Shown piece after piece: positions 1,508 to 49,334 of a DNA stretch of 64,000 nucleotides (the stretch's first letter is position 1; every line of letters begins with the position of its first letter). The stretch covers positions 64,001 to 128,000 of IMG/VR virus record IMGVR_UViG_3300042565_001021. One strand, 5' to 3'. The DNA is from a virus. Both the position numbers and the translations under genes were made by a program. The notes beneath the pieces are model-generated. The model saw only the letters and a list, made by a program, of their open reading frames with translations. It was not told the DNA's origin and ran no database searches.

Positions 1508-1596
1508 GATAAATAATAGTGCGGGCCGCGATACTTGTAATATCCGCCCGCTCTAGACGAACCAGGAGGCTCATATGTCCAGCAACGATATTTATC
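1508..1596 (+). promoter_or_regulatory. late promoter plus conserved structured leader of endonuclease gene (copy 1)
   Basis: TAAATA; stem GCGGGC-CGC-GATA/TATC-C-GCCCGC; AGGAGG SD. Confidence 0.75.
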
Positions 1597-2312
1597 AGCT
1601 GTATTACACATACCAACTAATTGATCCACGATCAAACTTACCATTTTACATTGGCTTCGCAAAAGATCCGCTGCGACCATATGATCATTTAGCGCAGTGT
1701 AAGAATTGGTTAGCAGGTAAGAAAGTTCCTCATCCAAACTATATCAAAATGGCCAAAATAAGAGACATTCTTAGTGAGGGTTACGAGTTCAAATTTGAAA
1801 TTATTTACAAAAGTTACGATCCAAATCAAGCATACGACAAAGAAACTGAGTTAATAACAAAGTATGGAAGACAAGACTTAAAGACAGGATTCTTATCTAA
1901 TATGAATGCTGGAGGCCGCGGCTGTCTAAATCCAAGTGACGAAGTAAGAAAGAAAATAAGTGACGGAAACTGCGGCACATTAGTTGAACGATGGGGCAAG
2001 GAACGAGCAGAGAAACAACTGGCGTTTCTTCGCAAACAACCCAAAGAAGTGATGGCAGAGCGCGGAATGAGAGGCGCTAAACACATCATTGACAACGGTT
2101 GGTCCAAAGAAACATTATCTAAAAGAAGTAAGTCAAGATTGCTAAACACGGTTAAACGCATCCAAAACCATTATCACCAGCCATACACCGAAGAGTTACG
2201 CATACAAGCAAGAAAAGACAAGGTTGCCTTTGTTGATAAGACAGCCTTGTCTAATTATGTCACAGAGGAAGATATTCGCCAGTTATCATATGACGGCAAG
2301 CCAACAGAGTAA
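1575..2312 (+). CDS. GIY-YIG family homing endonuclease
   Basis: YYTYQLIDPR...PFYIG, R..DH, AYDKETELI..YGR, LSNMNAGG; antisense insertion inside rnlA. Confidence 0.85.
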   Translation: MSSNDIYQLYYTYQLIDPRSNLPFYIGFAKDPLRPYDHLAQCKNWLAGKKVPHPNYIKMAKIRDILSEGYEFKFEIIYKSYDPNQAYDKETELITKYGRQDLKTGFLSNMNAGGRGCLNPSDEVRKKISDGNCGTLVERWGKERAEKQLAFLRKQPKEVMAERGMRGAKHIIDNGWSKETLSKRSKSRLLNTVKRIQNHYHQPYTEELRIQARKDKVAFVDKTALSNYVTEEDIRQLSYDGKPTE

Positions 2313-2847
2313 GCATGGGCTTATCGTAGTGAATCACAATCCGGTTATCAGGCGCTGTGTATTCAAATACCGGAGTGATTCCGTTTTCAATACACCAAGT
2401 CGAAAACGCCAGATACTCTGGATGAGCAGCAATAAACGGTTCCGCTTGAAGCGCAACATCAGTTAGTCCCATCTTCGTCCCAAAGCGAACCTTACCTTCA
2501 ACCATAAATGGTGACAGAAAAGAACCGTCAAGCTTGGTATAAACAGTATGCGGCTCAGAGAAATCAACATTCGCTAACTGCGTTTCTTCTTTCTCCATCA
2601 AGTTGAAAAATTTATGAAGAGGGCGACGAAGAATCTCACCAGTAGAAGAGCGGAAGATCATGCCGCGCAGTTCGCGCAGGATAGCGTGAGCTTCGTTTTC
2701 AACAGGAGGAAAGGTATCCGCCATCTGTACCACGTAGTTGATGACTGTGTAATCACCGTCCTTTACCGCGACAATGAACTCAGGCTTATCCGCAATCAGC
2801 GGCAATACCTGCGAAATGTTTGTGATCAACGGAAATTCATACTTCAT
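2260..2847 (-). CDS. rnlA: RNA ligase 1 (T4 Rnl1-like), N-terminal half of split gene
   Basis: ELRG, RPLHKFFN, motif I KLDGS, TPVFEY, DNRIVIHY. Confidence 0.88.
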   Translation of the reverse strand: MKYEFPLITNISQVLPLIADKPEFIVAVKDGDYTVINYVVQMADTFPPVENEAHAILRELRGMIFRSSTGEILRRPLHKFFNLMEKEETQLANVDFSEPHTVYTKLDGSFLSPFMVEGKVRFGTKMGLTDVALQAEPFIAAHPEYLAFSTWCIENGITPVFEYTAPDNRIVIHYDKPMLTLLACRHMITGEYLPL

Positions 2848-3075
2848 TTACTTTACTCCAAAGTGGTCTTTTATGTTTTTATCTACCCAGGCCAGCGTTC
2901 GTCCGACCTCGGTTCCTTCGTGCGGTGAAGGATTAGTGTACATCAAACATTCTTTCACAATCAGCTCTGCGAACTTTTCTGCGAACACACCCAATGATCC
3001 TTTACCGGACTCGTCGGCATGCTCGCTTGCGTATTGAAATGCTTCTGCTGCTAATGTGTCGATTCGATCGTTCAT
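2848..3075 (-). CDS. hypothetical protein, 'FAELIV.EC' family
   Basis: FAEKFAELIVKEC...HFGVK. Confidence 0.7.
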   Translation of the reverse strand: MNDRIDTLAAEAFQYASEHADESGKGSLGVFAEKFAELIVKECLMYTNPSPHEGTEVGRTLAWVDKNIKDHFGVK

Positions 3076-3278
3076 TTTAATCCTTTCTTTCTTCGTTCGG
3101 CCTGTAATCTCAGTGTTTCTGCTGTTTGTGCTTGATTAAATTTTTGTTGTGCGTCTGCCCAGGCGTCTATCGCTTTCTCATAATCAGGACCGTCGGACGG
3201 ACTGATTTTCTTTACTGCTTTATAAGCCAAGACAACTTCTTTGTAGGCTGCTGCTACCGCAGGATCTTCGAATTTCAT
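3072..3278 (-). CDS. hypothetical protein
   Basis: 68 aa ORF in operon. Confidence 0.55.
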   Translation of the reverse strand: MKFEDPAVAAAYKEVVLAYKAVKKISPSDGPDYEKAIDAWADAQQKFNQAQTAETLRLQAERRKKGLK

Positions 3279-3282
3279 AACC

Positions 3283-3448
3283 TTAACTCCATTTTAGCGC
3301 GAAAGCCGCAGCGTCTTTGTCATCGTCAAATGCTATCCAGTCTTCAAACCCTTGTCCAAATACAACCTTGCCTTTACAGTTGTCATTTTATCCAGTCGCA
3401 CATCGCATCAAAGTCGACCTTGCTGTAATCGTAATCGATGACGTACAC
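3283..3448 (-). pseudogene. frameshifted member of the 'L(K/R)W' small-protein family
   Basis: VYVIDYDYSKVDFDAMCDWI then +1 shift in A4 run (3386-3389) to NDNCKG...DKDAAAFALKWS*. Confidence 0.7.
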
Positions 3449-3449
3449 G

Positions 3450-3866
3450 TTAGCTCGCCTTACAGCCAAGTGCCTTCAATGCGTTGACGAATTCTCTGCG
3501 GTTAGCCTTGTTCATCACAGGAAGTTTCTCAACGTGTAACGAGGTCGCTCCGGTGACCCACCGGCAACGATCGCAGGCGTCTTTTGCGTCCTTCAGACCG
3601 TAGCCCGTGTATTGACGCACAGTTTTAATCACTTCAACATACATTGGCACATTTGCGTCAATCAGTCGCACATCGCCGAGATGCGTCCCGGTCATCATAG
3701 TAAAGAAAACCGCGCCCTTGAAATCCTGACCGACAGTGGTGGCAATCGTGCCCCACATTTCCATGCCGGCTTCGGGCCCCCAGAGCTCAGTAATTGTCCG
3801 CATGAAGTCTGTTCCGGACACAATCAGATCTTCTTGCTGCTCAGATGTTAGTGTATTGTAGTCCAA
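3450..3866 (-). CDS. protein with ribosomal bL12 (L7/L12) C-terminal-like domain
   Basis: VEVIKTVRQYTGYGLKDAKDACD resembles bL12 CTD VIKxVRxxTGLGLKEAKD. Confidence 0.75.
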   Translation of the reverse strand: MDYNTLTSEQQEDLIVSGTDFMRTITELWGPEAGMEMWGTIATTVGQDFKGAVFFTMMTGTHLGDVRLIDANVPMYVEVIKTVRQYTGYGLKDAKDACDRCRWVTGATSLHVEKLPVMNKANRREFVNALKALGCKAS

Positions 3867-3907
3867 TGTATCACTCCAGAATGCTATTTAATGCGACTAT
3901 TATAGCA

Positions 3908-4168
3908 TCATTTGTAACCAAAGTCAACCGAATATATTTGCCGGTACGGAAACACCCTAACAGTGGTGCCGAGCTTTAACGCTAAAAATGTACCTAATGC
4001 TTCATCTTCGCAGTATAGGTCAATATTGGTTCCGGTGGAGCGAACCTCCCATCCTGCTCCTCCAATGGCAATATTTCTATTAGATGGCAACCAGTATCGT
4101 TGCTCGGAGATGTTGTCGTTACACCAGCTAACTACATTCTGAACCTTGTTACCTATTATTACGCCCAT
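3908..4168 (-). CDS. 'L(K/R)W'-family-like small protein (degenerate)
   Basis: VVSWCNDNI...GW...EDEALGTFLALKL; start uncertain. Confidence 0.55.
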   Translation of the reverse strand: MGVIIGNKVQNVVSWCNDNISEQRYWLPSNRNIAIGGAGWEVRSTGTNIDLYCEDEALGTFLALKLGTTVRVFPYRQIYSVDFGYK

Positions 4169-4467
4169 TTTAGTTTCAATAGCGTCATTACCTCTTCGGA
4201 AACGTCGTACCACACACCTTTCACTTGCCGAACAATGAAGTAATCTTTATCTTCTACAAATGTTGCTCGTATCCATGTTAGCACTTTAGCATCGGCGGTA
4301 ATTGAATACATAGTCACACCGTCGACTACTGCCGATTCTAATACTGAATACATTTTTAATACCCCATACATCGGTTGAACTCCGACAATCTCGGCCGCAA
4401 TTAGATTAGGTACTATTCTTCGTATAAACGGAATCAGTACTTTTTGAAATTCTGTATGGTCTATCAT
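4159..4467 (-). CDS. 'L(K/R)W'-family protein with N-terminal gp23 Gol-like peptide
   Basis: VLIPFIRRIVPNLIAAEIVGVQPM followed by domain ending LLKLKWA. Confidence 0.8.
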   Translation of the reverse strand: MIDHTEFQKVLIPFIRRIVPNLIAAEIVGVQPMYGVLKMYSVLESAVVDGVTMYSITADAKVLTWIRATFVEDKDYFIVRQVKGVWYDVSEEVMTLLKLKWA

Positions 4468-4778
4468 AACCATTTTAATCTGAACATGAGCAGGTCTGCC
4501 TCATTGCGAAGAAAGATTCGGCAGTTTTTCTCACTGTGAGATATTCTCCAACGGTGCCTGCTGTGGTTACCGTCTGTCCCAAAGGCTTCTTTACACCAGG
4601 CTATTGCGTCGTGCCATTGCCTTAAAGGTATGTCAATTGCCCACTCGCCGTGGTAAGCTTTTCTTATCCAAATAGCATCAACAAGATACATCGAATCCAT
4701 CCCGTGGAGTACTTCGACGGTCCAGGTCCCTATAAGTTTTCGTGGACTGGCCTTAATCTGTGTCGTTGTTATTTCCAT
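4464..4778 (-). CDS. 'L(K/R)W'-family protein with N-terminal gp23-like peptide
   Basis: EITTTQIKASPRKLIGTWTVEVLHGMD followed by WCKEAFG...RW...NEADLLMFRLKWL. Confidence 0.8.
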   Translation of the reverse strand: MEITTTQIKASPRKLIGTWTVEVLHGMDSMYLVDAIWIRKAYHGEWAIDIPLRQWHDAIAWCKEAFGTDGNHSRHRWRISHSEKNCRIFLRNEADLLMFRLKWL

Positions 4779-4779
4779 T

Positions 4780-5022
4780 TTACTTCCATCGTAGTGTAAA
4801 GTATGACGCGTCGGTTTCGTTTTCAAAAGCAAAGATCGAGTGCAGATAGAAGCCACGCAGGTTTTTTATCCTTGACTTAACTTTTCCGGTCTTGTGTTTT
4901 TCTACCCAGCGGACTAAGCTGCGATGTCGTAATGATCCTTCTGAGACCGGATCTAAGTTTGTGCGGTGTTCGATGGTAGCCAGGTGCCATCCGTTTCGAA
5001 GCGACTTGCGCAGCGATGCCAT
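4780..5022 (-). CDS. 'L(K/R)W'-family small protein
   Basis: FAFENETDASYFTLRWK. Confidence 0.75.
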   Translation of the reverse strand: MASLRKSLRNGWHLATIEHRTNLDPVSEGSLRHRSLVRWVEKHKTGKVKSRIKNLRGFYLHSIFAFENETDASYFTLRWK

Positions 5023-5023
5023 T

Positions 5024-5323
5024 TTATTCTGCCTTTCTTTCCCTGATCAAGAATTCAAACAGAGTTCCAATGAAAGCTTCTACTGTAGCCGGACCTGTTA
5101 CTTTTACGTGTGAATAGTCGAGGTTGTGACGCCTGAGAACGTGAATGATATAACTTTCAAACGAGATCCAGTGTCGTACCCAATCTTCCATGTCTTTAAA
5201 TGTATCTGTTCCGTCAAAGTCAATGTAGTATCGATCTTCAATACATCGTCCCGTCACCTTTATCTTTAACGGTGAGCAGTATTCAACTAGCGGTTGAATA
5301 ATAGAACTTACAGTATCATCCAT
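5024..5323 (-). CDS. hypothetical protein
   Basis: 99 aa ORF in operon. Confidence 0.55.
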   Translation of the reverse strand: MDDTVSSIIQPLVEYCSPLKIKVTGRCIEDRYYIDFDGTDTFKDMEDWVRHWISFESYIIHVLRRHNLDYSHVKVTGPATVEAFIGTLFEFLIRERKAE

Positions 5324-5522
5324 TATGTTTCCATTTCAATGTAAAGAGCAATGCGTCTTGCTCGTTGCCAAATATGTATTCGTAAATGATGTCGTTAGTT
5401 ACGCTAACGTCGCTTACGTCAACTCCGTCTATAGTAATCAGATCAAGTTTAGAATCGTCAATGAATCTGCTCATTAAGTTAAGTTGTTCGTATGTTGGGT
5501 CTGCTATTAAAACCGTTTTCAT
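5316..5522 (-). CDS. 'L(K/R)W'-family small protein
   Basis: YIFGNEQDALLFTLKWK. Confidence 0.75.
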   Translation of the reverse strand: MKTVLIADPTYEQLNLMSRFIDDSKLDLITIDGVDVSDVSVTNDIIYEYIFGNEQDALLFTLKWKHNG

Positions 5523-5728
5523 TTCCATTTAAGCGAGATCCACGTGTAGGTCTCTTCCTCCATTTCGACCCAATATAGAATAGCCCCTGGACTAATAAAT
5601 ACCGGAATGCCGTATTCATTGATTAGCAGGTCTGTAAAGTCTCGAGAATTCAACGTGCCAAATTTGTGAGAAACCTTCGGAACAATCTCATTCATCAGTT
5701 TAGGAAATTGTCGTAGATCAACTTTCAT
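5519..5728 (-). CDS. 'L(K/R)W'-family small protein
   Basis: EEETYTWISLKWK. Confidence 0.7.
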   Translation of the reverse strand: MKVDLRQFPKLMNEIVPKVSHKFGTLNSRDFTDLLINEYGIPVFISPGAILYWVEMEEETYTWISLKWK

Positions 5729-5940
5729 AACCACTTCAGAGCAAATAGTGTTGCGTCTTTATCGTTTTCAAAAGTAAACTGTAGGTTCCCAAACATGCTG
5801 TACAGTTCCCACTTGAATGGGTTGTCTTCGTCTCGGGCATCTCTATGAAGCCAGCCGCCTTGACCAACGTTTTCTAGACACCATTGGATCATTTCTTCCT
5901 GTTTATGGTAATACTCTTTGTCAAGGTTAACGCTTTTCAT
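5725..5940 (-). CDS. 'L(K/R)W'-family small protein
   Basis: WCLENVG...FTFENDKDATLFALKWL. Confidence 0.8.
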   Translation of the reverse strand: MKSVNLDKEYYHKQEEMIQWCLENVGQGGWLHRDARDEDNPFKWELYSMFGNLQFTFENDKDATLFALKWL

Positions 5941-5941
5941 C

Positions 5942-6151
5942 TTAACTCCACTTCAACGAAAAGAAAGAGGCATCGTCGGCGTATTCAAACAGCACAGATA
6001 ACCCAAATACTACACTTGGTTGGAACTCTACTTCGCCCCTTGAATTTTTCTTACACCACTTAACCATCTCGGTTGTCTCGTCGAGGTACGGATTAGTAAG
6101 GTGTGGCAGTCGAACCACGGAAGAATTTGCGTACAATCGCCCCATGCCCAT
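5942..6151 (-). CDS. 'L(K/R)W'-family small protein
   Basis: WCKKN...FEYADDASFFSLKWS. Confidence 0.75.
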   Translation of the reverse strand: MGMGRLYANSSVVRLPHLTNPYLDETTEMVKWCKKNSRGEVEFQPSVVFGLSVLFEYADDASFFSLKWS

Positions 6152-6390
6152 TATACGCCCACCCTATTAACGATTCCGTAGATGTTAGCTAACATGAAGT
6201 AAGAGTTAACTATTAGCACCGAACGAAGCGATTCAGACGCTTCGGACTTTACGATGAGCCATATAGATGCGCCGCAGCCGACGCAGAAGAAGCAGTAACC
6301 TATCAACTGTATCTCAACCTGCGCAGTAGCCACTAACGCGGCGCCGACAATGTTACCGATCAGCGCCAACGCATCCATTAGCTTTTTCAC
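6151..6390 (-). CDS. small membrane protein
   Basis: About three hydrophobic segments. Confidence 0.65.
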   Translation of the reverse strand: MKKLMDALALIGNIVGAALVATAQVEIQLIGYCFFCVGCGASIWLIVKSEASESLRSVLIVNSYFMLANIYGIVNRVGV

Positions 6391-6629
6391 TCTTTGCCTT
6401 CCCTTGCTACAAACAGAACACAGCCAAAGTTCCAGCGTGTTAGTATCTTGTGTTCTTTGTCGGAGCCATCGACGATGACCTTCGAAATGTACCTGTCGTC
6501 TGACGACGCGGAGCTAGGTCGCTGCTTGCCCGAGATCAGCGTGTGTTTGCAGTAATTGACATTGCCGGCATCATATGGAAAGCCACTGCCGTCGCCGTCA
6601 CCCCAGAACTTACAACGAGAGCATTTCAT
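6387..6629 (-). CDS. Cys-rich small protein
   Basis: CSRCKFW...C...FGC. Confidence 0.65.
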   Translation of the reverse strand: MKCSRCKFWGDGDGSGFPYDAGNVNYCKHTLISGKQRPSSASSDDRYISKVIVDGSDKEHKILTRWNFGCVLFVAREGKE

Positions 6630-6913
6630 GTTTCTTGCCTTCCTTTAAATTTTAAGAAAAGTGCTGTTAAAAGAGGATCGTCTGACGGAAGATGAATCGT
6701 TATATACCGAGACCCAGTTGACTCTTGTACAAAGTCTCTTACGTCTTTATGAAACAATTTTACCAGCGTCTTTTCGTTACAGACCGCGAATACAAAATCT
6801 GCGCCCTGGGACGGATCGTCTAGTGCTGCCATTCTAATCCTTATGTGAGAAAGGTACTCGCTCAATGAGCAGTTTTCCCATGTACGTAGATTTATCTTAC
6901 GCTTCCGCGACAT
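6626..6913 (-). CDS. hypothetical protein
   Basis: 95 aa; ends LTALFLKF, possibly a distant 'LKW' relative. Confidence 0.5.
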   Translation of the reverse strand: MSRKRKINLRTWENCSLSEYLSHIRIRMAALDDPSQGADFVFAVCNEKTLVKLFHKDVRDFVQESTGSRYITIHLPSDDPLLTALFLKFKGRQET

Positions 6914-7355
6914 ATTCTTCGGTAGGTGTTACGATGATAATCTTGCTAAAGCCCTCAAGTCGCGTAGGGCGAACGTATTCCTTGCCGAGGTCCTTAGTAA
7001 CAGCAGCAGGGATCTCGAATGCCACAGCCACTACATCGTAGCCAGCAGCGATTAGCAGATCAATCTTTGGCCTACGAGTCGTTAGCGTTAAGTTAGCCCG
7101 ATCCCATATCAAATGCCGATACATGTCGATCATGCTCTTAACTCGATCGTTGAACCAATGGCTGGCTGCGTCGATGTTTGCCCTGATTACGTCGCCAAAG
7201 GTTTTCTCTTCTGCCTTTATTTCGCTCTCAACAAGAGCGTCGGGCGCAAGGTGTACAAACTTCTTCTGTAAAAGATAAGGAGCAGACCAGCTTAGCTGGG
7301 CTGTACACGGAATGCCTACTAACAGGTAGGCAACTGGTTTAATGGTAGTATCCAT
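6897..7355 (-). CDS. polynucleotide-kinase/AAA_33-like protein with degenerate P-loop
   Basis: YLLVGIPCTAQLSW, IWDRANL..TTR, PTRLEGF. Confidence 0.65.
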   Translation of the reverse strand: MDTTIKPVAYLLVGIPCTAQLSWSAPYLLQKKFVHLAPDALVESEIKAEEKTFGDVIRANIDAASHWFNDRVKSMIDMYRHLIWDRANLTLTTRRPKIDLLIAAGYDVVAVAFEIPAAVTKDLGKEYVRPTRLEGFSKIIIVTPTEEYVAEA

Positions 7356-7399
7356 ACTAACACTATACACTCTTTCGAGGAGTGTGTCAACCAGTATTT

Positions 7400-7801: not shown

Positions 7802-7822
7802 AGTAAAATTACTTATGCCAGC

Positions 7823-8517: not shown

Positions 8518-8518
8518 G

Positions 8519-22978: not shown

Positions 22979-23829
22979 TACCATCCTCCCGGCGGCTCTG
23001 CAGGCAACCCTGCCCCTTTAAGGTCAGAAGCAGAAACTTTTGCTCCACCAGGTGGTGAAACCGGTTTTGGTTCTTTAACTCCGTTCTTCGAATCTACAAA
23101 TCGTTTCCATAAGCTCTTCTCTATTGCTATACACTTCCCACTAAACCATACCTCGTTTTTCATAGGGTGGTTTAAAGCAAAAGACTTGATAGTTTTAATT
23201 TGCATGCCTGTCCTGTCAGGAGCCATGCCTCTGTTTAAGACATCAATGAAATCCTCTGACCCAACTTTTCCGTTTGACAGATACCGTAACTCTTTTTCTA
23301 CTCTTGGCATCTTTACTGCTTTGACAAACTCAGCGTATGAAGTGTCGGGTAAGTACAGATAGTTTCTACACATGTCAGCGATGCCTTCAAACGTGGTGTG
23401 AATGTTAGGTTCAAACTCTGGCAAATGCGCCTTCACTTCCCATATGTCTTTCTCTGGACAAATGCCTATCCTTGTTCCGTTGAACGGAAATAAAGCATAT
23501 AAAGATCCACCAAATGCGTTAGCATACGTCCGATCACTTGTAGCAATTAAGCTCTTGCTACGCTTTGGCCAAAGTGCGTAATTAGGACTATTGTCCATCA
23601 ATAGCGTATAGTGATTAGAAGTGTTCTGTGACTTGCGCTCGCTGTTTGTTGTATCAATGAACACTAACGGTTCTTGGTGGTCTTTCATTGAACGCCAGAT
23701 CGGATTCTCTAACATAGGCAGAGCTTCTGTACAGTGAGCGTTCAGCAGCTCCATAGCCTTCTCTAGCTGAAGGTTCTCAGCCTGGTATGGGGTAACCGCG
23801 GCTTCAACAGTAAATTCTTTTGCTCTCAT
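22978..23829 (-). CDS. putative capsid-internal protein, possible ART fold
   Basis: Leader MRAKEFTVE; IWRS, RSKSLIATS, NEVW; paralogue of 29280..29972. Confidence 0.65.
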   Translation of the reverse strand: MRAKEFTVEAAVTPYQAENLQLEKAMELLNAHCTEALPMLENPIWRSMKDHQEPLVFIDTTNSERKSQNTSNHYTLLMDNSPNYALWPKRSKSLIATSDRTYANAFGGSLYALFPFNGTRIGICPEKDIWEVKAHLPEFEPNIHTTFEGIADMCRNYLYLPDTSYAEFVKAVKMPRVEKELRYLSNGKVGSEDFIDVLNRGMAPDRTGMQIKTIKSFALNHPMKNEVWFSGKCIAIEKSLWKRFVDSKNGVKEPKPVSPPGGAKVSASDLKGAGLPAEPPGGW

Positions 23830-30662: not shown

Positions 30663-30748
30663 ATAAATAAAAGTGCAGTTCGCGATGTTGAAGCATCCAA
30701 CTGCCCTAGACTAACCAGGAGGCTATATGTCCAGCAATAATACTTATT
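30663..30748 (+). promoter_or_regulatory. late promoter plus conserved structured leader (copy 2)
   Basis: TAAATA; GCAGTT-CGC-GATG/CATC-C-AACTGC; AGGAGG. Confidence 0.75.
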
Positions 30749-31275
30749 ACGTTTACGCATATCTGCGCAATAAAGACTCAAAAACTGCTAAAGCAGGAAC
30801 ACCTTATTATATTGGCAAAGGATCAGGACGACGCGCCTGGGTAACCCATAAACATAAGACCCCGGTGCCGAAAGATAAAACGTTTATTGTTCTACTTGAA
30901 CAGAATTTAACTGAAGTCGGAGCATTAGCCTTAGAGAGGAGAATGATTGCTTGGCATGGAAGAAAAGATTTAGGAACAGGCATTCTATTAAATAGAACAG
31001 ACGGAGGAGACGGTTGTAGCGGAGTTATTATGTCTGAATTAACTAAAGAAAAACGTAATGCTGCGCAAAGAGGAAAGAAGTTGTCAGAAGAACATAAGAG
31101 AAAAATATCTGTCGGTTCAAAATCAAGACCGCCTATATCCGAAGAAACGAGAGAAAAATTTAGGCTACGAAACAAAAACCGGGCGCCGATGACAGCTGAA
31201 GAGAGGGTAAAATTATCAATTGCAGTAACGCAGTCATGGGCAAGAAGAAAATTACTTAAATCTTCTGCCGCTTAA
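30727..31275 (+). CDS. GIY-YIG homing endonuclease with NUMOD3-like repeats
   Basis: YYVYAYLR...PYYIGKG, LLNRTDGGDG, LSEEHKRKIS. Confidence 0.85.
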   Translation: MSSNNTYYVYAYLRNKDSKTAKAGTPYYIGKGSGRRAWVTHKHKTPVPKDKTFIVLLEQNLTEVGALALERRMIAWHGRKDLGTGILLNRTDGGDGCSGVIMSELTKEKRNAAQRGKKLSEEHKRKISVGSKSRPPISEETREKFRLRNKNRAPMTAEERVKLSIAVTQSWARRKLLKSSAA

Positions 31276-39252: not shown

Positions 39253-39473
39253 TATGACCACCTCAGCAAAAACATTTCACGATCCTCGTCGCGCTCAAAG
39301 TATATCTGACCAAAAATGTTGTCAAAGAAATAACTTCCTATGCCTTCATATTCTTCTAACCAGTCCAACTGCCGCAAGACATTCTCGTCTTTTCTCGGAT
39401 CCCATAATGCTGCCCCGCTGTTAATAACAGGTTGCCAGTCGGTGCCTATCATTCCGTTTAGTTCTCGTCTCAT
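39252..39473 (-). CDS. 'L(K/R)W'-family small protein
   Basis: YFERDEDREMFLLRWS. Confidence 0.75.
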   Translation of the reverse strand: MRRELNGMIGTDWQPVINSGAALWDPRKDENVLRQLDWLEEYEGIGSYFFDNIFGQIYFERDEDREMFLLRWS

Positions 39474-39715
39474 GACCATTTCAGTAAAAACATTTCACGA
39501 TCTTCGTCGCGTTCAAAGTAATACAGCTTGAAATGCGGATCGGAATAGTATTTTCCTAACCCTTCATACTCAGCTAGCCATATTTCAATCTGAATACCTT
39601 CAAACGAAATTCCGCTAAGATAGTCAAAGTCAATTAGCTCTCTTTCGAGATTCACGCACTGCCACTCGGTGCCAATCATCCCGTTAGTTTCGCGTTCCAC
39701 TGCTACTCCAACCAT
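39470..39715 (-). CDS. 'L(K/R)W'-family small protein
   Basis: YFERDEDREMFLLKWS; close paralogue of the adjacent gene. Confidence 0.75.
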   Translation of the reverse strand: MVGVAVERETNGMIGTEWQCVNLERELIDFDYLSGISFEGIQIEIWLAEYEGLGKYYSDPHFKLYYFERDEDREMFLLKWS

Positions 39716-40533: not shown

Positions 40534-40754
40534 TTAACCCACCTCAGAGCGAACAGAACAGCGTCTGATTCTTTTTCAAAGGAAAACGTAAGTGGCCCGT
40601 ATCCTGTGTCTTCGTCTTCATGGGTGCTAGTCATTCGTCCGGTTATGTTCTTTGCTACCCAGCAAGCAGACCCTTGCATAACGCATTCGGTCCAGTTGTC
40701 AACAATGACGTTATACGGATACGGTGCCCATGGCAATTTTCTGTTCACAGCCAT
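40530..40754 (-). CDS. 'L(K/R)W'-family small protein
   Basis: FSFEKESDAVLFALRW. Confidence 0.75.
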   Translation of the reverse strand: MAVNRKLPWAPYPYNVIVDNWTECVMQGSACWVAKNITGRMTSTHEDEDTGYGPLTFSFEKESDAVLFALRWVK

Positions 40755-41281
40755 TTTGCGAACAGCTCCTTAAATTCTTCTTCGGTTAGGTCACCTACGT
40801 CCTTGCCTTCCGGCAGGAACACGCATTCAGCACCGTACTTAGCAAGCTTCTTACCTGCTGCGTCGCCCTGAACACAAGCTACCTTCCGCTGCGGCATCCC
40901 CATCAGCCAACCAGTTAGATGCTTTGGGTTGTTGCCCATTACAGCAACAGCAGGCAGACCGTGCCAGTGTAGCCGAGCAGCGTCAAACACGCCTTCGGTC
41001 AGGAACAGAAACTTGTCCGTCCAGCGTACAGTTTCGAGACCCCACACAGCCAGGTGAGCGTCTTTGCTTGCGCAAGGCTTGGTTACCCAGCTAAAGTATT
41101 TCTGTAGCTTTGGGTCGCCTACTTCCTTCTTAGGCTGTGACGGAGAATACGTCTGAAACCCAACTGCCTGCCCAGATAAATTCCATAACATCACAGTCAT
41201 CATTTTATCTGTCACCGTAAGGCTACTATACCGCTGCGGGTCAAAATAACGACTACGTAGATGAGTTAGCATTTTATCCAT
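40745..41281 (-). CDS. small Toprim-domain (primase-like) protein
   Basis: LWNLSGQAVGFQ, LTEGVFDA, GDAAG, KDVGD. Confidence 0.75.
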   Translation of the reverse strand: MDKMLTHLRSRYFDPQRYSSLTVTDKMMTVMLWNLSGQAVGFQTYSPSQPKKEVGDPKLQKYFSWVTKPCASKDAHLAVWGLETVRWTDKFLFLTEGVFDAARLHWHGLPAVAVMGNNPKHLTGWLMGMPQRKVACVQGDAAGKKLAKYGAECVFLPEGKDVGDLTEEEFKELFAKWL

Positions 41282-41325
41282 GTTTGTATTATACATGAAA
41301 ATTTACTAAATGTCAACCAAAAAAG

Positions 41326-41403
41326 ATAAATAAGTGTGGACCACGGAGTTCGCCGCTCCCGCCCACTCTAACGCTATAAGGAGCAATCAGCATGTATATT
41401 TAT
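41326..41403 (+). promoter_or_regulatory. late promoter plus conserved structured leader (copy 3)
   Basis: TAAATA; GTGGAC-CAC-GGAG/CTCC-C-GCCCAC; AAGGAG. Confidence 0.7.
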
Positions 41404-42009
41404 ACTTCAGAACAAGTAAGACCATATGTTTATATGGGAATTCATAAAGTAACCGGTGAGATTTACATAGGTTATCGTGAAGCAAACTCAACTCCGTCAC
41501 ACCTTGATATCTTCGAATATCGGACTTCGTCTAAGATAGTTAAACCGAAGTTTGATGATTATACCTGGTATATAGTAGCAGAGTTCATAACAGGTGATGC
41601 GGCTTATGACTTTGAACAACAATTGATATTTGAAAATTGGGATAGTCCTCTTCTGTTAAACAGAAGCTGTCAATTTGGTCATCAGAAAAGATTTAAGTGT
41701 TCAAATAAAGGAAGAAAACAATCAGACAGTCATATCGCAAAGCTGACTGAGATTCGTAAAAATAGGACACTTCCGGCTGATTTCGGCGCAAAGGTCTCGG
41801 CTGGTCTCAAAGGAAAACCGAAATCCGAAGAGCATAAGATAAAAACAGGTAATGCCTTTCGAGGGATCCCTCGAACTGAAGAAACTAAGCAAAAAATTAA
41901 AGAGAAAAGAGCTCTTCAGGTAATAACACATGAATCAAGAATTAAAGCCGCAGCGACCCGAGCAAGAAACTTAGCATTGAAAAGTCAACCAAAAGAAATG
42001 GGCCCATAA
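41392..42009 (+). CDS. GIY-YIG (Seg-like) homing endonuclease with NUMOD3-like repeats
   Basis: PYVY...TGEIYIGYR, Y.TSS, AYDFEQ, LLN, KSEEHK. Confidence 0.82.
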   Translation: MYIYTSEQVRPYVYMGIHKVTGEIYIGYREANSTPSHLDIFEYRTSSKIVKPKFDDYTWYIVAEFITGDAAYDFEQQLIFENWDSPLLLNRSCQFGHQKRFKCSNKGRKQSDSHIAKLTEIRKNRTLPADFGAKVSAGLKGKPKSEEHKIKTGNAFRGIPRTEETKQKIKEKRALQVITHESRIKAAATRARNLALKSQPKEMGP

Positions 42010-42043
42010 AGAGCCCATTGCTTGGGAGGTGCGTTGTTGCTTA

Positions 42044-42382: not shown

Positions 42383-42428
42383 ATGCTGTGGTGCACAATA
42401 TTATTTAGCTTTTTGTGCACCACAGCAT
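42383..42428. promoter_or_regulatory. 16-bp perfect inverted repeat enclosing a late promoter
   Basis: ATGCTGTGGTGCACAA...TTGTGCACCACAGCAT with TAAATA (minus strand) in the spacer. Confidence 0.7.
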
Positions 42429-42458
42429 ATTTTTGCTACCGTTTTTGAAGGATTTTGA

Positions 42459-43472: not shown

Positions 43473-43786
43473 TGCGCTGTATCCTTGATTCTACTTTCTA
43501 TAATTTCGTAAAAGGAATCTAGCTCGCCACCAAACTTTCCTTTAAGGTGCGCAATGCCTTCTGCGACAGTAACGTAATCTTGTCTATTCCAAGCGTCAAC
43601 TAGTGCCTGATGAATGCGAGAATAACGCTCTATGTCAGGCATCTCTCCTAACGCAATAGCTTCTGCTGGTACTACGCAGAATGCTGTTACTGGATCTCTA
43701 TCCTCGACTTGGAAGGTTTCAAGTTCTAAAACACTGTGTCGGTTTCTTAGCTCTTCAGCTACATCTCTACCAAATATAATATGCAT
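43469..43786 (-). CDS. hypothetical phage protein
   Basis: IIFG...VLELETF...LKGKFGGELDSFY. Confidence 0.75.
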   Translation of the reverse strand: MHIIFGRDVAEELRNRHSVLELETFQVEDRDPVTAFCVVPAEAIALGEMPDIERYSRIHQALVDAWNRQDYVTVAEGIAHLKGKFGGELDSFYEIIESRIKDTAQ

Positions 43787-43798
43787 ACAACTATTTAT

Positions 43799-44386
43799 TC
43801 ACTGTTTCAGCTGCTGAAATTTTTCCATAAACAGTTTGTAAGAGGTAAGGGAATCGAGCGGAGCATTAAAGCTCTGTAGTCGCTCTAAGGAAACTTCGGG
43901 CATGTCTGGCCAATGCTTGCCACGACTTGGCATGAACGCATGGGCTTCAATCTTTTGTGCTATCTTGTCGGCTTTCTTAATAAGAGCCTCTTCTTCGGGC
44001 GTTGGAGGTTCTAAGGTCATAGCCTTGTAAACGGCAGTCATCAGCCCGGCTTCAATCTGCTTAATAATAGGTCGAAGCTTAGGAATGCGTTTCACTGGGC
44101 TTGGCCAGTCCCCAGTGTAAATCTCTGCTGCGTCGTGTAACAATGCCAGCAATATAACTCGGGCTGAATCTTTAGTCAATCCGTAATACCGGTCATGCTC
44201 AAGTAACGCGGCAACCTCGTCGGCAACAAACATTGAGTGTTGGGCAACATTATACGCGACTACAGTGATTGTATGACCACAGAACCGAGGCATGCGCGAT
44301 AGTCCCCAGGCGATATCCTCGATATTAATTGTGCTTGGGTCAGGGTTCTCTAAGTCGACGAGTTGCCCCGTTACTGTTTCAAGCAT
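43799..44386 (-). CDS. HD-domain phosphohydrolase (YfbR-like 5'-deoxynucleotidase)
   Basis: IEDIA..LS...RF.GH, VAQHS, LLHDAAE.Y.GD..SP.K. Confidence 0.85.
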   Translation of the reverse strand: MLETVTGQLVDLENPDPSTINIEDIAWGLSRMPRFCGHTITVVAYNVAQHSMFVADEVAALLEHDRYYGLTKDSARVILLALLHDAAEIYTGDWPSPVKRIPKLRPIIKQIEAGLMTAVYKAMTLEPPTPEEEALIKKADKIAQKIEAHAFMPSRGKHWPDMPEVSLERLQSFNAPLDSLTSYKLFMEKFQQLKQ

Positions 44387-44387
44387 A

Positions 44388-44876
44388 TCATCTAGCCAAG
44401 CCGCAAGATTTTATCATAGTGATTAGCTGATGTGTCGGAGTGTCTGCTCCATACGTAATAACTTCGTATTTGCCTTCTTCGTTATAGTAGAAGGCATCCT
44501 CAGGACTAAAGCCTGCCTCGGCTAAATCTGTTTTAACCGCAGTTTTGTAATCCATTGCTCCCCAAATGCGCTCCGGCAGGACGATCCCGCAACAAGTGAC
44601 CAACCCATTTAACGAGTCGGCGTCTTCAGCAAACGACCCTGTTGGGAATTCTCTCTCGAGGGTTAGCCTGGCAAGTTTCTCTAGGATGTCTACGCTTGCG
44701 CCACCGTTTAAGATGATAAGTGTCTTGTCTTTAGTTGCCCATTCGTGTAACATAGTTTTCTGCGTATCAGTCTGCCAATTGTCAGTAAACATGTTAGCGA
44801 CTAAGTGAGCAGTCTGTACGCCTTGTTGAATAGACGACAGGTAAAAGTTTACGAACGAGTATAGTCGGTAGTTCAT
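44388..44876 (-). CDS. PTH2-like (peptidyl-tRNA hydrolase fold) phage protein
   Basis: YLSSIQQGVQTAH, W....KTLIILNGG, F.ED..LNG. Confidence 0.55.
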   Translation of the reverse strand: MNYRLYSFVNFYLSSIQQGVQTAHLVANMFTDNWQTDTQKTMLHEWATKDKTLIILNGGASVDILEKLARLTLEREFPTGSFAEDADSLNGLVTCCGIVLPERIWGAMDYKTAVKTDLAEAGFSPEDAFYYNEEGKYEVITYGADTPTHQLITMIKSCGLAR

Positions 44877-45406
44877 TTCTTCTTTACCCCGCATTGTTTG
44901 TAGATTGCCTGAACGCCTTTTGCTTGCGAATAGGCATCAGCTAACGCATTGTGCGCTTGAGAGTTGCTTGTCTTGAAGGAATAGTCGCCCATGTCGCCTA
45001 CTGTGCGGCTGTCACGGATTCTCCAGTATTCCCACGGACACGGCTTGCCAAGCTGCTTATACATGTGCTGAAGAATAAGGATGTCGAACAAAGGTCCTTG
45101 TGCCCAAATCTTGTCAGCACCTACAATGTAGCGGCTAATCTGATTAGTGAACTCATCCATACTGATCCGGCCGTCCTCCCCCATGGCTTCATCTTGTGCG
45201 GCTTGTGGCTGTCGCATCCACCAGTCCATTGTGCTCGGATCAACGACCCGGCCGCGTTCAGTTTGCTCTTCTACGTCGACGCGGATATATAACGGCATGT
45301 TCGGTTCCGCATCGCTGTACGGATCAAACTTTACCGCACCGAAGGTGAGAACTACTGCGTCCTCACCTGTTGCGCAGGTTTCAAGGTCTAACATGAGTTG
45401 AGCCAT
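44873..45406 (-). CDS. DEDDh 3'-5' exonuclease
   Basis: MLDLET, W.QG..FD..IL, RDSRT, HNALADA. Confidence 0.85.
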   Translation of the reverse strand: MAQLMLDLETCATGEDAVVLTFGAVKFDPYSDAEPNMPLYIRVDVEEQTERGRVVDPSTMDWWMRQPQAAQDEAMGEDGRISMDEFTNQISRYIVGADKIWAQGPLFDILILQHMYKQLGKPCPWEYWRIRDSRTVGDMGDYSFKTSNSQAHNALADAYSQAKGVQAIYKQCGVKKK

Positions 45407-45407
45407 C

Positions 45408-45719
45408 TTAGATTACCGGCTCCAATCTCACCAAAAGTGGAAATCCATTGTTGCGAGCAAGCATCGTTACTTCAACGCCTTTTTGCTCTGCTAGCTCATA
45501 CGGCAGAACAGCAACTACAGCAGATCCGTCAACGTGGATCTTTTCGCAAATATCAGCGGCTGACTCTGGAGAATGATCGAATACCTCGACCAGGCTCATA
45601 ACTACGAATTCCATTGTCGTAGTTTCGTCGTTGATGTAGATGACGTTAAACAAGGGAGGCGGCTTTAAATCTAGCTTCGGCTTAATTTTTTCTTTAATTC
45701 CAATGTCGGCGTGTGCCAT
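45408..45719 (-). CDS. clpS: ClpS adaptor
   Basis: VIYINDETTTMEFVV..L..VF, IH.DGSAVV, AEQK, FPL. Confidence 0.9.
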   Translation of the reverse strand: MAHADIGIKEKIKPKLDLKPPPLFNVIYINDETTTMEFVVMSLVEVFDHSPESAADICEKIHVDGSAVVAVLPYELAEQKGVEVTMLARNNGFPLLVRLEPVI

Positions 45720-45750
45720 TTTGTGTTACCTGTTTTGTGAGGTGAAGGTA

Positions 45751-45990
45751 TTACAGTATGCTACAGATAAGGCGTAAAGCTTTGACTGCGGTTTCAAGGA
45801 GCCGCTTCTGCGCGTCTGTCTCGGCTGCGTCTTGGAGCTTTTTTAAGTCTAGCAGTTGATCGCTTAGGTTCTTGAATTCTTCTTCGTTAATCTGATTAGA
45901 GTTCAGTAGCGTCTTGTATCTGCTAACTCGAGCAGCGAGCTCTGCCACTTGTCTGTCTTCGTGGTTTAGAAGTTCGTTAAGGTTCATCAT
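45751..45990 (-). CDS. hypothetical helical protein
   Basis: Coupled downstream of lipoprotein gene. Confidence 0.6.
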   Translation of the reverse strand: MMNLNELLNHEDRQVAELAARVSRYKTLLNSNQINEEEFKNLSDQLLDLKKLQDAAETDAQKRLLETAVKALRLICSIL

Positions 45991-45991
45991 T

Positions 45992-46378
45992 TTAATTGTG
46001 ACTCCTTGCTCCGAGAGCATATAGAATAGTGCTGGCTGCGGTTCTCATGTTCTCAGCTGACTCTTTACAATAAACTACGCTGCCGCCTACCTTAAATCGC
46101 AACACCAAGCCTGCCATAGTCGAAGCGAACTCTTTTGATACTTCGTCTGGACGATGACCTGCGTAGATAACCGCAGTGTTCGACAGTTGCCGCATTACTT
46201 CGTGCTCTGCTCGTTCCTTGTTAGTATCTCCGCAAGCACCGTTGAGCTTAACTGCGCGATCAGACATAGACACATAGGTCATGTATTCTTGGTTGTCGAA
46301 CCTAGCAGTAAATGCTCCACACCCTGCCAGGGCAGTAACTACGGCCATAGCCGTAAGTAACTTGATATATGGTTTCAC
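45992..46378 (-). CDS. lipoprotein
   Basis: Lipobox LAGC. Confidence 0.7.
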   Translation of the reverse strand: MKPYIKLLTAMAVVTALAGCGAFTARFDNQEYMTYVSMSDRAVKLNGACGDTNKERAEHEVMRQLSNTAVIYAGHRPDEVSKEFASTMAGLVLRFKVGGSVVYCKESAENMRTAASTILYALGARSHN

Positions 46379-46453
46379 CTAATTCTCCTTATATAACATA
46401 CTACGGGATTTGCCGTAGTAAGTCAATCTTTTTGGTTAATATTTCTGTTTTGG

Positions 46454-47041
46454 TTATATCTCTTCAAACAAGGTCTCAGCATACCAAACCCACCCTTGGC
46501 CACGATTATTTACATCTTCTGAAAAGTAATTCTTACCTGGACCCAACTTAGTTGATTCGAACATGTAACATAAGTCTGGATCATTGATCGGCTCTACTAG
46601 CTTGGTCTTTTCTCCAGTTATCTTATTCAATACAGACGGAGTAGCCATTCCATATTTTCCTAACGAATTGATTAACTCTTGCCCTCCGGCGAAAATAGCT
46701 CCATCTGCTATAACTGGATCCTTAGCAAATTCTTTAACTGCGTAGAGTAACCATTTAATCGCTGAAGTTTTTCTAAAGGTTGGAACTATGTAAATTAGAT
46801 CAATATGAGAATAAATGTTGCCTAGTAGCCTGTCTCGACTAATCTTAACAAACCCTATTAACAATGCCTGATCTTTTTTAAGAATCAAGTATTTGTCTTT
46901 TTCCCAAAGCGATAATGTTTCTGAGACCTCAGTTATTTTTACAGCATCGTCTATCTCGGCATTGATGAACTGATGATCTACTTTATCATCTGGAAATTCC
47001 CCGAACTGCGTTGCTTCGGGCGTAAACTCATTCGACTTCAT
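46454..47041 (-). CDS. putative capsid-internal GNAT-like protein
   Basis: Leader MKSNEFTPE; IDLIYIVPTFRK. Confidence 0.65.
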   Translation of the reverse strand: MKSNEFTPEATQFGEFPDDKVDHQFINAEIDDAVKITEVSETLSLWEKDKYLILKKDQALLIGFVKISRDRLLGNIYSHIDLIYIVPTFRKTSAIKWLLYAVKEFAKDPVIADGAIFAGGQELINSLGKYGMATPSVLNKITGEKTKLVEPINDPDLCYMFESTKLGPGKNYFSEDVNNRGQGWVWYAETLFEEI

Positions 47042-47286
47042 TAATATTTCTGTTTTGGTAAAGAATCGCCTGCCAACTTACGTTCCCAACGCTTCTTAGC
47101 TTGGCTAGCAGCCCGCTTTCTTTTGGTCGTCGGTTTTTCGTAAGACTCGCGCTCGCGCAGTTCAATCATTAAACCGCTGTCTTGTATCTTGTTTCTAAAC
47201 TTGCGCATTGCTGCTTCAAACTTGCCTTCAGCGACATACACCTTCGATCCTGGCGCCATCGGCGGCACATAGTTATTTTGAGACAT
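47041..47286 (-). CDS. rpsU: ribosomal protein bS21
   Basis: FEAAMRKFR.K....G...ELRERESYEKPTTKRKR. Confidence 0.9.
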   Translation of the reverse strand: MSQNNYVPPMAPGSKVYVAEGKFEAAMRKFRNKIQDSGLMIELRERESYEKPTTKRKRAASQAKKRWERKLAGDSLPKQKY

Positions 47287-47656
47287 TCTTATCCTTTAAG
47301 GTAAATTGCGCGAAAAAATCTATCGGCTTTTCAATTTTGTTATTATTCATTATAAACTTCTTTTGACCATAATAAAAGTTTTTTGGGTTAACTACTAGCC
47401 GGTCTTTTATCTCGCTGCAAACAGTATTTACGGTGTTCACTATAACCGTGTTAGATTTCTCAACCACTTTGTTTAGCCATTCTTCGTCGTTCATCTCTGC
47501 CCGATAAAGATACACGTTGAACTGGCGTTCCGAATACTGTAAGAAAAGTGCTAAGTCGTCAACTTCTTCCAATGTAGGGTCGATGACGACTACACTATAC
47601 GCTCGTCCTTTTACAACATCAGGTGGAGTAACTAATTTACTTAGGCGTTTGTTCAT
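47273..47656 (-). CDS. hypothetical protein
   Basis: LVTPPD...FNVYLY....DEEWL. Confidence 0.65.
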   Translation of the reverse strand: MNKRLSKLVTPPDVVKGRAYSVVVIDPTLEEVDDLALFLQYSERQFNVYLYRAEMNDEEWLNKVVEKSNTVIVNTVNTVCSEIKDRLVVNPKNFYYGQKKFIMNNNKIEKPIDFFAQFTLKDKNVSK

Positions 47657-49229
47657 TTAAATACGCTGCGATCTGATCTTGTTCAGTTTGACTAAGATCG
47701 TCAATGTCGTACTCTCCGCTTTCGACTTTAGAAAGCAAAAGCTTGATATACTCTTTATCGTAAGCATAAGTGTCAGTAACGTTTTTATCAACCTGGAACC
47801 AGTTTTCACCGCTCCATTTAAATAATGTGCTAGGAACCATATCAACACGCAAGAACAAGTCTCCGGCCTCAGGATCTTTCGGGAATGTTACTCCAAAGTG
47901 GGCATTACCTCCCTTAGGGAAATTTTCAGGTAATCCTTCTAACGGTGGAAGAACTATTTTATGCTTTGCTGGAAACTGCGGCAGTGGCTGAGGATCCGCA
48001 CTTACAGTAAGGCTGGTCACCTCGGGCGTTTGTTCGTCTGTCGGGAGCGTTTCCAGCAAATTCGCTGCGTTGTTTTGAATAATAGCCGAAATCTCTTTAC
48101 TTTCTCCAGGTTGTTCAAGGATAAGCTCTACTGCTTTTTCTAAATCTCCGTTAAGACGCGCAATTTCTGCGTCACGAGCTGCTATTGCTTCCTCGGCCTT
48201 TTGCTGCTCTACTGCCTGTTCAGCAGCAATCTGAATAATCTCTGCTTGCCGGGCCTGCTCTGCCTCTGCGGCACACTCGGCTCGGGTTGCTGCGATTGCT
48301 TCTTCAACAAGCTTTAGCATCTCATCTTCGGATGGGGAAGGAATAGGTTCCGGTGGTAGCATGAGAGCAACAGGAACAGAATCCGCCTGAGCCTGTAATG
48401 CTGCTAGCTCTGCTGCCTCTTTTGTTTCTTCGATCTGCTCAATTATTTCGTCGTGCTTCTTTTTACGCCTATCAAGCTTAGACCAGTCAATAGACGAGGT
48501 TGCTGCTAGGATTAGAACAATGGCAAGTGGATCAAACACAAACACAATGATTATGATTACCCACCGAACGGCCGATTCTAATAGATTATGATCAGGGTTG
48601 TCGCCGTAAATTAGCGCAGCCACGTACCTAATAGGCCCGACCTCCGCTTCTACTTTACGGAACTGACTTGCGACTGGCGCTCGTTCTTCTTGTAGTTTCG
48701 TGATTGTCTTTTGCGCGGCATCAATGTCTTTCTGTAATGCTGCGCGTTCTTTAGCTTGCGACCTGCGCAAGTTAGCTGACCTAGTAGCACCGGTGTCATC
48801 GGTCGTTCTGGCCATTGTTTGATCAACTGCGCTGTCAAGCTGAACTAGTGCCTTACGCGCCGAGGCGATGTTGTCTTTTTGTGTTAGTATCTTCTCATCG
48901 TATAACGCAACTTGGGCCTGTATGTCACCAGACGGCACAGCTTGTTCTAAGTGGGCTTTTGAAAGGAATCCGAAGATACCCATTGAGGTAATGAACATCA
49001 ACACGCCAACAGCAACCGTTAGATAGGATTTGATTTTCCAATCGGCACGTGACCAGTTGTAGTGTAACCAAACTGTAGAAACAACTTTGCCGAGTTCTAA
49101 TGCTATTCCCATAACGATAATAGGAATAACAGCCGCGGCAAAGATTGCTGTGAGACCGACTACTGAATACCAAGCGGCAATGAAAGATATCGAAAGAGCC
49201 GTTAAAAGAGTTATAAGACCTAGAATCAA
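47637..49229 (-). CDS. multi-pass membrane coiled-coil protein
   Basis: AAWYSVVGL, LELGK, ITSMGIFGFLSKAH, EAEVGPI.Y, FDPLA; probable TTG start after GGAG. Confidence 0.8.
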   Translation of the reverse strand: MILGLITLLTALSISFIAAWYSVVGLTAIFAAAVIPIIVMGIALELGKVVSTVWLHYNWSRADWKIKSYLTVAVGVLMFITSMGIFGFLSKAHLEQAVPSGDIQAQVALYDEKILTQKDNIASARKALVQLDSAVDQTMARTTDDTGATRSANLRRSQAKERAALQKDIDAAQKTITKLQEERAPVASQFRKVEAEVGPIRYVAALIYGDNPDHNLLESAVRWVIIIIVFVFDPLAIVLILAATSSIDWSKLDRRKKKHDEIIEQIEETKEAAELAALQAQADSVPVALMLPPEPIPSPSEDEMLKLVEEAIAATRAECAAEAEQARQAEIIQIAAEQAVEQQKAEEAIAARDAEIARLNGDLEKAVELILEQPGESKEISAIIQNNAANLLETLPTDEQTPEVTSLTVSADPQPLPQFPAKHKIVLPPLEGLPENFPKGGNAHFGVTFPKDPEAGDLFLRVDMVPSTLFKWSGENWFQVDKNVTDTYAYDKEYIKLLLSKVESGEYDIDDLSQTEQDQIAAYLNEQTPK

Positions 49230-49248
49230 AAGTAATGCTCCAAAAAAG

Positions 49249-49334
49249 ATAAATAATAGTGCAGTTCGCGATACGCAAATATCCAACTGCCTTAGTCATC
49301 CTTGGGAGGATATATGACCAACACTACTATTTAT
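49249..49334 (+). promoter_or_regulatory. late promoter plus conserved structured leader (copy 4)
   Basis: TAAATA; GCAGTT-CGC-GATA/TATC-C-AACTGC; GGAGG. Confidence 0.75.

Follow-up and report, generated by a model that had tools for sequence, protein, structure and literature searches.

T4-like phages carry homing endonucleases as their main selfish elements. To our knowledge, protection of the carrier from these enzymes is known from a few T-even cases, all of them sense-strand hairpins or autorepression. The T-even hairpins, described for I-TevI, I-TevII, I-TevIII, segB and Aeh1 mobE, are on the mRNA and form only on early or middle read-through transcripts, with the late promoter inside the hairpin (PMC2988022). 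In the transposon IS10/Tn10, RNA-OUT is a stem-loop antisense RNA of ~69 nt directed against the translation initiation region of RNA-IN, the mRNA from the facing promoter; it blocks ribosomes, and control rises with copy number (PMC5006887). The element considered here is a cassette of 76–90 bp fused to the 5' end of free-standing homing endonuclease genes and present four times in a 64,000-nt stretch of virus DNA (hereafter the window), bases 64001–128000 of the 155-kb IMG/VR virus record IMGVR_UViG_3300042565_001021, which is 44% complete. Its two hairpins covary on the strand opposite the endonuclease gene, and the cassette probably encodes a cis-antisense RNA of 57–75 nt that damps the endonuclease.

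Three further systems bear on this cassette. Dassa et al. (2009) found conserved 5' hairpins at 15 of 16 Global Ocean Sampling (GOS) metagenome loci, ten of them with TATAAATA, upstream of free-standing endonuclease genes in ‘fractured genes’, and described, at T4-like metagenomic loci, two conserved motifs that pair with each other (PMC2677866). An antisense RNA of ~225 nt, CfrI, spans an endonuclease gene and psbA of cyanophage S-PM2, according to the citation of Millard et al. (2010) in PMC2984593. PeSL elements, in which a sigma-70-like early promoter comes after a stem-loop terminator, are repeated in plastic genome regions of T4-like phages (PMC2839356, PMC4122927). An antisense reading of such cassettes was not found described in the literature.

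The cassette and its copies

The motif ATAAATA that opens the cassette starts at window positions 1509, 30663, 41326 and 49249. All four copies listed in an earlier note on this DNA are present, the first beginning at 1509 rather than 1508. The pattern ATAAATA-N1-4-GTG-N5-CNCG, drawn from the 5' half of the element, matches the window four times, always on the + strand, against 0.00 matches expected (100 shuffles). A pattern scan of IMG/VR gave at least 118 loci, ~75 among them clear homologues, and a covariance model (R1) built from five homologous loci gave, among the matches listed, 92 matches in 81 loci. By this model the record carries nine copies in one common orientation, so that four is correct for the window but not for the record, and five large IMG/VR records carry between 1 and 12 copies each. 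At E up to 1 it recovers no − strand copy at record position 136355.

On the + strand the order is ATAAATA (the outer box), 3–5 nt ending in GT, hairpin P2, one base, hairpin P1 around the Shine–Dalgarno (SD) sequence, the start codon and TATTTAT (the inner box, read on the opposite strand). P2 has an outer stem of 6 bp and an inner one of 4 bp, separated by a C(G/A)C / C internal loop, and is closed by a loop of 6–7 nt. The anatomy first described for the element, with both stems, the internal loop, the loop and an SD/start pairing with an A–C mismatch, holds. The downstream TATTTAT is likewise where it was placed in copies 1, 3 and 4 (in copy 2 it is TACTTAT), but the role then given to it, as a pairing partner of the outer box, is not borne out; it is best read as a late promoter pointing backwards.

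Copy 1 occupies 1509–1595 (R1 score 53.6 bits, E 2e-9), with its + strand box at 1509–1515, P2 at 1521–1551, P1 at 1553–1582 enclosing the SD (1564–1569) and the ATG (1575–1577), and the − strand ATAAATA box at 1589–1595. Copy 2, at 30663–30747 (58.1 bits), has its + strand box at 30663–30669, P2 at 30675–30704, P1 at 30706–30734 and the ATG at 30727–30729. Copy 3 has the canonical form and lies at 41326–41403 (61.5 bits), with the + strand box at 41326–41332, P2 at 41336–41366, P1 at 41368–41390, the ATG at 41392–41394 and the − strand box at 41397–41403. Copy 4, at 49249–49334 (62 bits), has the + strand box at 49249–49255, P2 at 49261–49290, P1 at 49292–49321, the ATG at 49314–49316 and the − strand box at 49328–49334.

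The strand that folds

When an alignment of 83 distinct copies (A4) is read on the strand that lies opposite the endonuclease gene, standard pairs make up 98.9% of 1458 cells and each helix is 98–100% paired, the SD helix at 98.8%. Fourteen of the 18 pairs change on both sides, with 270 compensatory cells, a level reached by 0 of 500 shuffles; slid controls also fall far below it. The compensatory changes seen among the four window copies are therefore real and persist in the larger alignment. The description of a conserved, covarying element better conserved than its cargo is supported. As a control, a mirror-image model (R2) was built for the gene strand and the same loci were realigned to it. 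Here 88.8% of cells are paired overall and only 79.1% in the SD-enclosing helix, in which one pair, an invariant A·C, is unpaired in 80 of 81 sequences, and at two further pairs 14 and 35 cells are unpaired; read on the opposite strand, every one of these is G·U. The mirror image of P2 is 96–97% paired on the gene strand. The opposite strand has 158 G·U cells, the gene strand 10 (20 versus 0 in the outer stem of P2, 130 versus 3 in P1).

The A–C mismatch of the earlier note is thus real as a feature of the gene strand, but it is a G·U pair, and no mismatch, on the strand that folds. The same figures speak against that note's proposal of a structured mRNA 5' leader sequestering the ribosome-binding site (RBS) in the manner of I-TevI. 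What is conserved is a fold of the strand opposite to that of the gene.

RNAalifold independently returned the same two hairpins together with one more covarying pair (G–C in 66, G·U in 16 and A–U in 9), which accounts for the ‘C(G/A)C’ loop. A MAFFT alignment of 70 copies (A2) put the loops and the bulge of P1 in the wrong place, and anchor parsing and covariance-model alignments (A4 and A6) were used in its stead.

On the opposite strand the minimum free energy is the lower one in 64 of 68 elements, and each of the four window copies shows the same. The predicted RNA of copy 1 (1509–1583, − strand; −29.1 kcal/mol, z −3.17; + strand −19.2, z −0.83) would start ~6 nt past the − strand box, form the two hairpins and end in the U-tract ACUAUUAUUUAU. 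Those predicted for copies 2 (30663–30735, − strand) and 4 (49249–49322, − strand) have energies of −22.9 kcal/mol (z −2.84; + strand −15.5, z −1.19) and −19.4 kcal/mol (z −2.21; + strand −15.1, z −1.45), respectively, and that predicted for copy 3 (41326–41391, − strand) has −18.5 kcal/mol (+ strand −14.3), its z of −0.37 being weak alone.

Two facing late-promoter boxes

Each cassette holds two boxes of the T4 late-promoter type, (N)ATAAATA, that face each other ~65–75 bp apart. A spacer of 4–6 nt, in most cases 5, separates each box from a downstream G that stands at a hairpin's base. A spacing of ~5 nt is that expected for a T4 late start. Across the record, 40 of 58 occurrences of ATAAATA lie no more than 90 nt upstream of a same-strand gene start, tail-fibre genes included. 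Open reading frames (ORFs) resembling gp55 occur in three cassette-bearing relatives. ATAAATA thus apparently behaves as the late promoter of the phage, a TATAAATA-like −10 box without a −35 element; the accepted late box of T4-like cyanophages is NATAAATA (PMC2984593).

The inner box lies within codons 2–4 of the endonuclease gene and points backwards. It reads (A/G)TAAATA, with TAAATA conserved at 93–96% per position, and it occurs in every one of the three frames set by the start codon (53, 10 and 8 cases), where it is translated as xIY, (I/V/L)F or YL. Nine different codons serve as codon 2 in the MxIY class, and T is the last base in 46 of 46 cases, versus 32% elsewhere, and the isoleucine codon is ATT in 43 of 43, versus 39% elsewhere in the same ORFs. 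The MxIY start is also found in unrelated HNH enzymes. The use of three frames, the forced codon choice and the recurrence of MxIY in unrelated proteins together indicate selection on the nucleotides and not on the protein.

Two side observations concern ATAAATA elsewhere in the record (G000; record coordinates). Tandem late boxes (ATAAATAGATAAATA) at 23169/23177 and 53746/53754 stand upstream of two large − strand genes, one of 807 amino acids that matches a tail-fibre PHROG and one of 316 amino acids without a PHROG match. An HNH-like ORF at 2776–3530 has ATAAATA 22 nt upstream and lacks the cassette, so the module is not used by every endonuclease gene of this phage.

A proposed antisense RNA

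The family, its covariation, the strand of its fold and nucleotide-level selection on both boxes are established by the comparisons above. To these the model adds three steps that we infer, namely that the boxes fire, that P2 with the U-tract terminates transcription and that the resulting RNA represses. The outer box would drive the endonuclease mRNA, whose 5' end would be at the base of P2. The inner box would start an opposite-strand RNA, first at the G at the base of P1, consisting in order of this G, P1 (whose loop carries the anti-SD CUCC at its 5' side), a single base, P2, and AC with a U-rich tail. On this strand P2 has 6 + 4–5 bp with an internal loop and is followed by AC and then by UUUUAUUUAU or UAUUAUUUAU; the predicted RNA would end in the tract ACU(U/A)UUAUUUAU, the complement of the outer box. 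In the proposed module a single 7-bp box would be a promoter when read on one strand and the tail of a terminator when read on the other.

The predicted RNA is perfectly complementary to the whole 5' untranslated region (UTR) and, in copies 1, 2 and 4, to the start codon as well; its complementarity to the SD follows from the geometry of the cassette. The mRNA-side mirror of P1 is weakened by the A·C, so that the SD would be open unless the antisense RNA pairs there. Such pairing could block ribosome binding, bring about cleavage of the duplex, or both. The result would be less of a potentially harmful nuclease, as IS10 RNA-OUT achieves for transposase, and a role in limiting endonuclease expression, already suggested for the element, is plausible.

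Several observations weigh against this model. In copy 2 the − strand box (30741–30747) is degenerate, ATAAGTA. A simple consensus-based terminator scan of window stretches did not call P2, which it probably missed because of the internal loop; besides that loop, P2 is followed by a U-tract broken by an A. As both promoters are of the late class, sense and antisense RNA would be made together, giving damping rather than a temporal switch, and the benefit of such damping is conjecture. The z-scores of single-sequence folds are modest, as for copy 3, and are weak evidence; the argument for the strand rests on covariation. A search of the 44% complete record with T4 gp55 gave no match, nor did two cassettes find one by blastn (E up to 10) among 50,697 cultured phage records.

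Taken with these points, the full model of a cis-antisense RNA that damps the endonuclease is the explanation we favour, with some reserve. The antisense cassette is well supported computationally, and the transcript and its repression are what it would predict. If the model is right, a widespread and compact two-promoter antisense module would bring IS10-like control to phage endonuclease genes, would give a rare instance of a conserved small RNA family in T4-like phages and would account for the first four codons (MxIY) common to unrelated nucleases.

Alternative explanations

A possible but unlikely alternative is that the cassette is a terminator or insulator and nothing more. P2 with the U-tract would be an intrinsic terminator, PeSL-like, for early or middle antisense transcripts of the neighbouring genes, and no discrete small RNA would come from an internal promoter. 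PeSL cassettes of like build are known in T4-like phages (PMC2839356, PMC4122927), and there is a bias of orientation: among 55 endonuclease genes with both flanks present, 36 are antisense to both neighbours and 6 are co-oriented, so that the antisense insertion proposed in the earlier note is a tendency and not a rule. There is also an association with early promoters. Within 80 nt past the U-tract, on the strand of the RNA, a sigma-70 promoter (at least 10 of 12 matches) is present in 31 of 79 elements; the reverse-complement control gives 3 of 79. Copies 1 and 3 have perfect ones (TTGACA-17-TATAAT, 12/12; − strand), the only perfect ones in the stretches scanned: that at 1465–1493, past the U-tract of copy 1, would serve the left neighbour 862–1455, and that at 41288–41316, past the U-tract of copy 3, the left neighbour 40745–41296.

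A terminator alone leaves unexplained the conserved, covarying P1, as well as the three-frame TAAATA, the forced codons and the fixed 5-nt spacing to P1. The whole cassette, box and fold, is kept even where the endonuclease gene is co-oriented with its neighbours and where no other opposite-strand transcription is therefore expected. At one such locus (L096:3694–6388) a T4-type terminase large-subunit gene is interrupted by the cassette-headed gene, leaving one Terminase_6N and one Terminase_6C ORF whose ends overlap; Dassa et al. (2009) describe ‘fractured genes’ of this sort. Copy 3, moreover, already has a strong terminator-like hairpin at the 3' end of its endonuclease gene. This hairpin (41997–42019, − strand; 9 bp, 5 of them G–C, then TCTTTTGG) may stop leftward transcription from the right-hand neighbour before it enters endonuclease gene 3. 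The insulator and antisense readings are compatible, in that P2 may end both kinds of transcript.

An extension of the antisense model, in which the cassette is a brake that senses copy number or co-infection, is doubtful. The RNAs would act in trans through the shared P1 and its anti-SD, as in the multicopy inhibition of IS10, the covarying P2 stems would decide which copies affect one another and the 80-bp cassette would be a recombination handle for nuclease ORFs. Were this so, nuclease output would be capped as endonuclease genes accumulate (up to 12 cassettes per genome) or the endonucleases of a co-infecting rival would be silenced, and ORFs for GIY-YIG, HNH and DUF7487 proteins would be captured at the cassette.

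It is improbable that the cassette works as a sense-strand leader, either by masking the RBS with mRNA hairpins, as for I-TevI, segB and Aeh1 mobE, or by stabilizing the mRNA with a 5'-terminal hairpin. For T-even endonuclease genes, late promoters together with hairpins that mask the RBS are established (PMC2988022), the similar metagenomic hairpins were given the same reading by Dassa et al. (PMC2677866), and the well-paired mirror of P2 would be at the very 5' end of the late mRNA. Against this stand the poorly paired SD helix of the gene strand, with its invariant A·C and its two other weakened pairs, and the near absence of G·U from that strand. The outer promoter is, furthermore, upstream of both hairpins, with ATAAATA 5–6 nt upstream of the first base of P2 and not inside a hairpin, so that the logic of I-TevI, whose late transcripts are without one arm, cannot apply.

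Finally, a DNA-level element is highly improbable, whether a recombination or cassette-end site that shuffles nuclease ORFs or a protein operator, the arms being formed by the 7-bp inverted repeat ATAAATA...TATTTAT. One cassette on unrelated nucleases (GIY-YIG, HNH and the DUF7487 protein) does imply modular exchange at the cassette or close to it, and conserved PeSL motifs have been proposed as recombination sites (PMC2839356), but recognition of double-stranded DNA gives no cause for a one-sided G·U/A·C asymmetry or for compensation on one strand, and a common operator for unrelated nucleases is unlikely. Recombination at the cassette may still take place as a by-product.

Cargo and carriers

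The ORF behind each window copy is on the + strand, whereas the surrounding genes are coded on the − strand, and all four ORFs match PHROG 314, ‘homing endonuclease’. Gene 1 (1575–2312, +; 245 amino acids, GIY-YIG-like) matches it with E 2.4e-12, and has Pfam matches to LEM-3 GIY-YIG and GIY-YIG below threshold. Gene 2 (30727–31275, +; 182 amino acids) matches PHROG 15526 (E 1.6e-21) and PHROG 314 (E 6.5e-9), and has a GIY-YIG-type N-terminus, YVYAY...YYIGKG, with no Pfam match. Gene 3 (41392–42009, +; 205 amino acids) matches PHROG 314 with E 5.1e-14, and gene 4 (49314–49880, +; 188 amino acids) carries a NUMOD3 DNA-binding motif (E 1e-13; PHROG 314 E 7.8e-14). The four genes, first taken for GIY-YIG genes, are therefore homing endonuclease genes, but a Pfam GIY-YIG match, itself sub-threshold, is found solely in copy 1, and the cargo of the family as a whole includes GIY-YIG (PF01541), HNH (PF01844, PF13392), DUF7487 and unassigned ORFs. 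Such varied nuclease cargo marks the cassette as a portable head and not the leader of one gene family.

One of the HNH ORFs lies behind the cassette at record position 47385. It occupies 47444–48228 in two overlapping frames of 86 and 176 amino acids and is probably a frameshifted endonuclease gene with its cassette intact. Within an array of small − strand genes in the window there are two near-identical short hairpins, 218 nt apart, at 39278–39293 and 39496–39511 (−), which read CGCGACGA(A/G)GATCGTG and then AAATGTTTTT.

A full T4-type gp23 major capsid gene is present in three of the five large cassette-bearing records, one of which is a complete 328-kb genome with terminal repeats, and the same three have a gp55-like late sigma ORF. 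The gp55-like homologues (G001:66034–66258, G002:39557–39829 and G005:62665–62898) lie in open frames of 311–322 amino acids, T4 gp55 having 185. These genes in the relatives indicate that the carriers are uncultured T4-like giant phages. T4-likeness is argued from the relatives because the record is incomplete; the sole match to Pfam Gp23 in its 155 kb is a 30-residue N-terminal piece (window 4363–4452, −) within a 113-residue open frame. A megablast search with 8 kb of the window against the same cultured phage records gave no match. A tblastn comparison of the ligase, tried for taxonomy, gave ~32% identity to SPO1-like phages and was uninformative.

Comparison with known systems

PeSLs share with ~39% of the cassettes (31/79), window copies 1 and 3 included, the same build on the opposite strand, but they are without P1, late-promoter boxes or a fixed link to the start codon of an endonuclease gene. 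The early promoter, which is outside the conserved cassette and absent from most copies, is an associated and not a defining feature.

CfrI, as far as it is described in the citing paper, is likewise placed opposite a homing endonuclease gene in a T4-like phage and co-expressed with that gene. As presented there it is a single locus, unlike a portable 80-bp unit with covarying hairpins, and it is to that extent a precedent for antisense RNA opposite a phage endonuclease gene.

The hairpins of Dassa et al. are probably the same or a related element, likened here by their description and not by motif sequences. The claim of the earlier note that the motif is undescribed thus stands in part. The Rfam comparison that it proposed (release 15, cmscan with E up to 1, 24 kb around eight copies) gave 0 matches, but hairpins with TATAAATA and two complementary motifs had already been seen in 2009 (PMC2677866). 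They were read in that study as a sense-strand translational hairpin, and the second promoter, the strand asymmetry and an antisense RNA are undescribed there.

With the T-even hairpins (PMC2988022) the cassette shares a late promoter directly upstream, RNA structure around the SD and the restraint of a nuclease. Unlike them, it has its promoter ahead of both hairpins, and the fold under selection lies on the strand opposite the gene.

The closest logic is that of IS10/Tn10 RNA-OUT and RNA-IN (PMC5006887). In both cases the gene is that of a mobile DNA-cutting enzyme and has an outward-facing promoter inside its 5' end, here predicted at the level of sequence only. In the cassette, too, a structure under selection, the two covarying hairpins, is complementary to the translation initiation region. 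Unlike IS10, the cassette has gp55-type late promoters on both sides, two hairpins and a U-tract lying across the sense promoter; sense and antisense RNA would overlap over the whole 5' UTR, and the cassette heads several unrelated endonuclease families.

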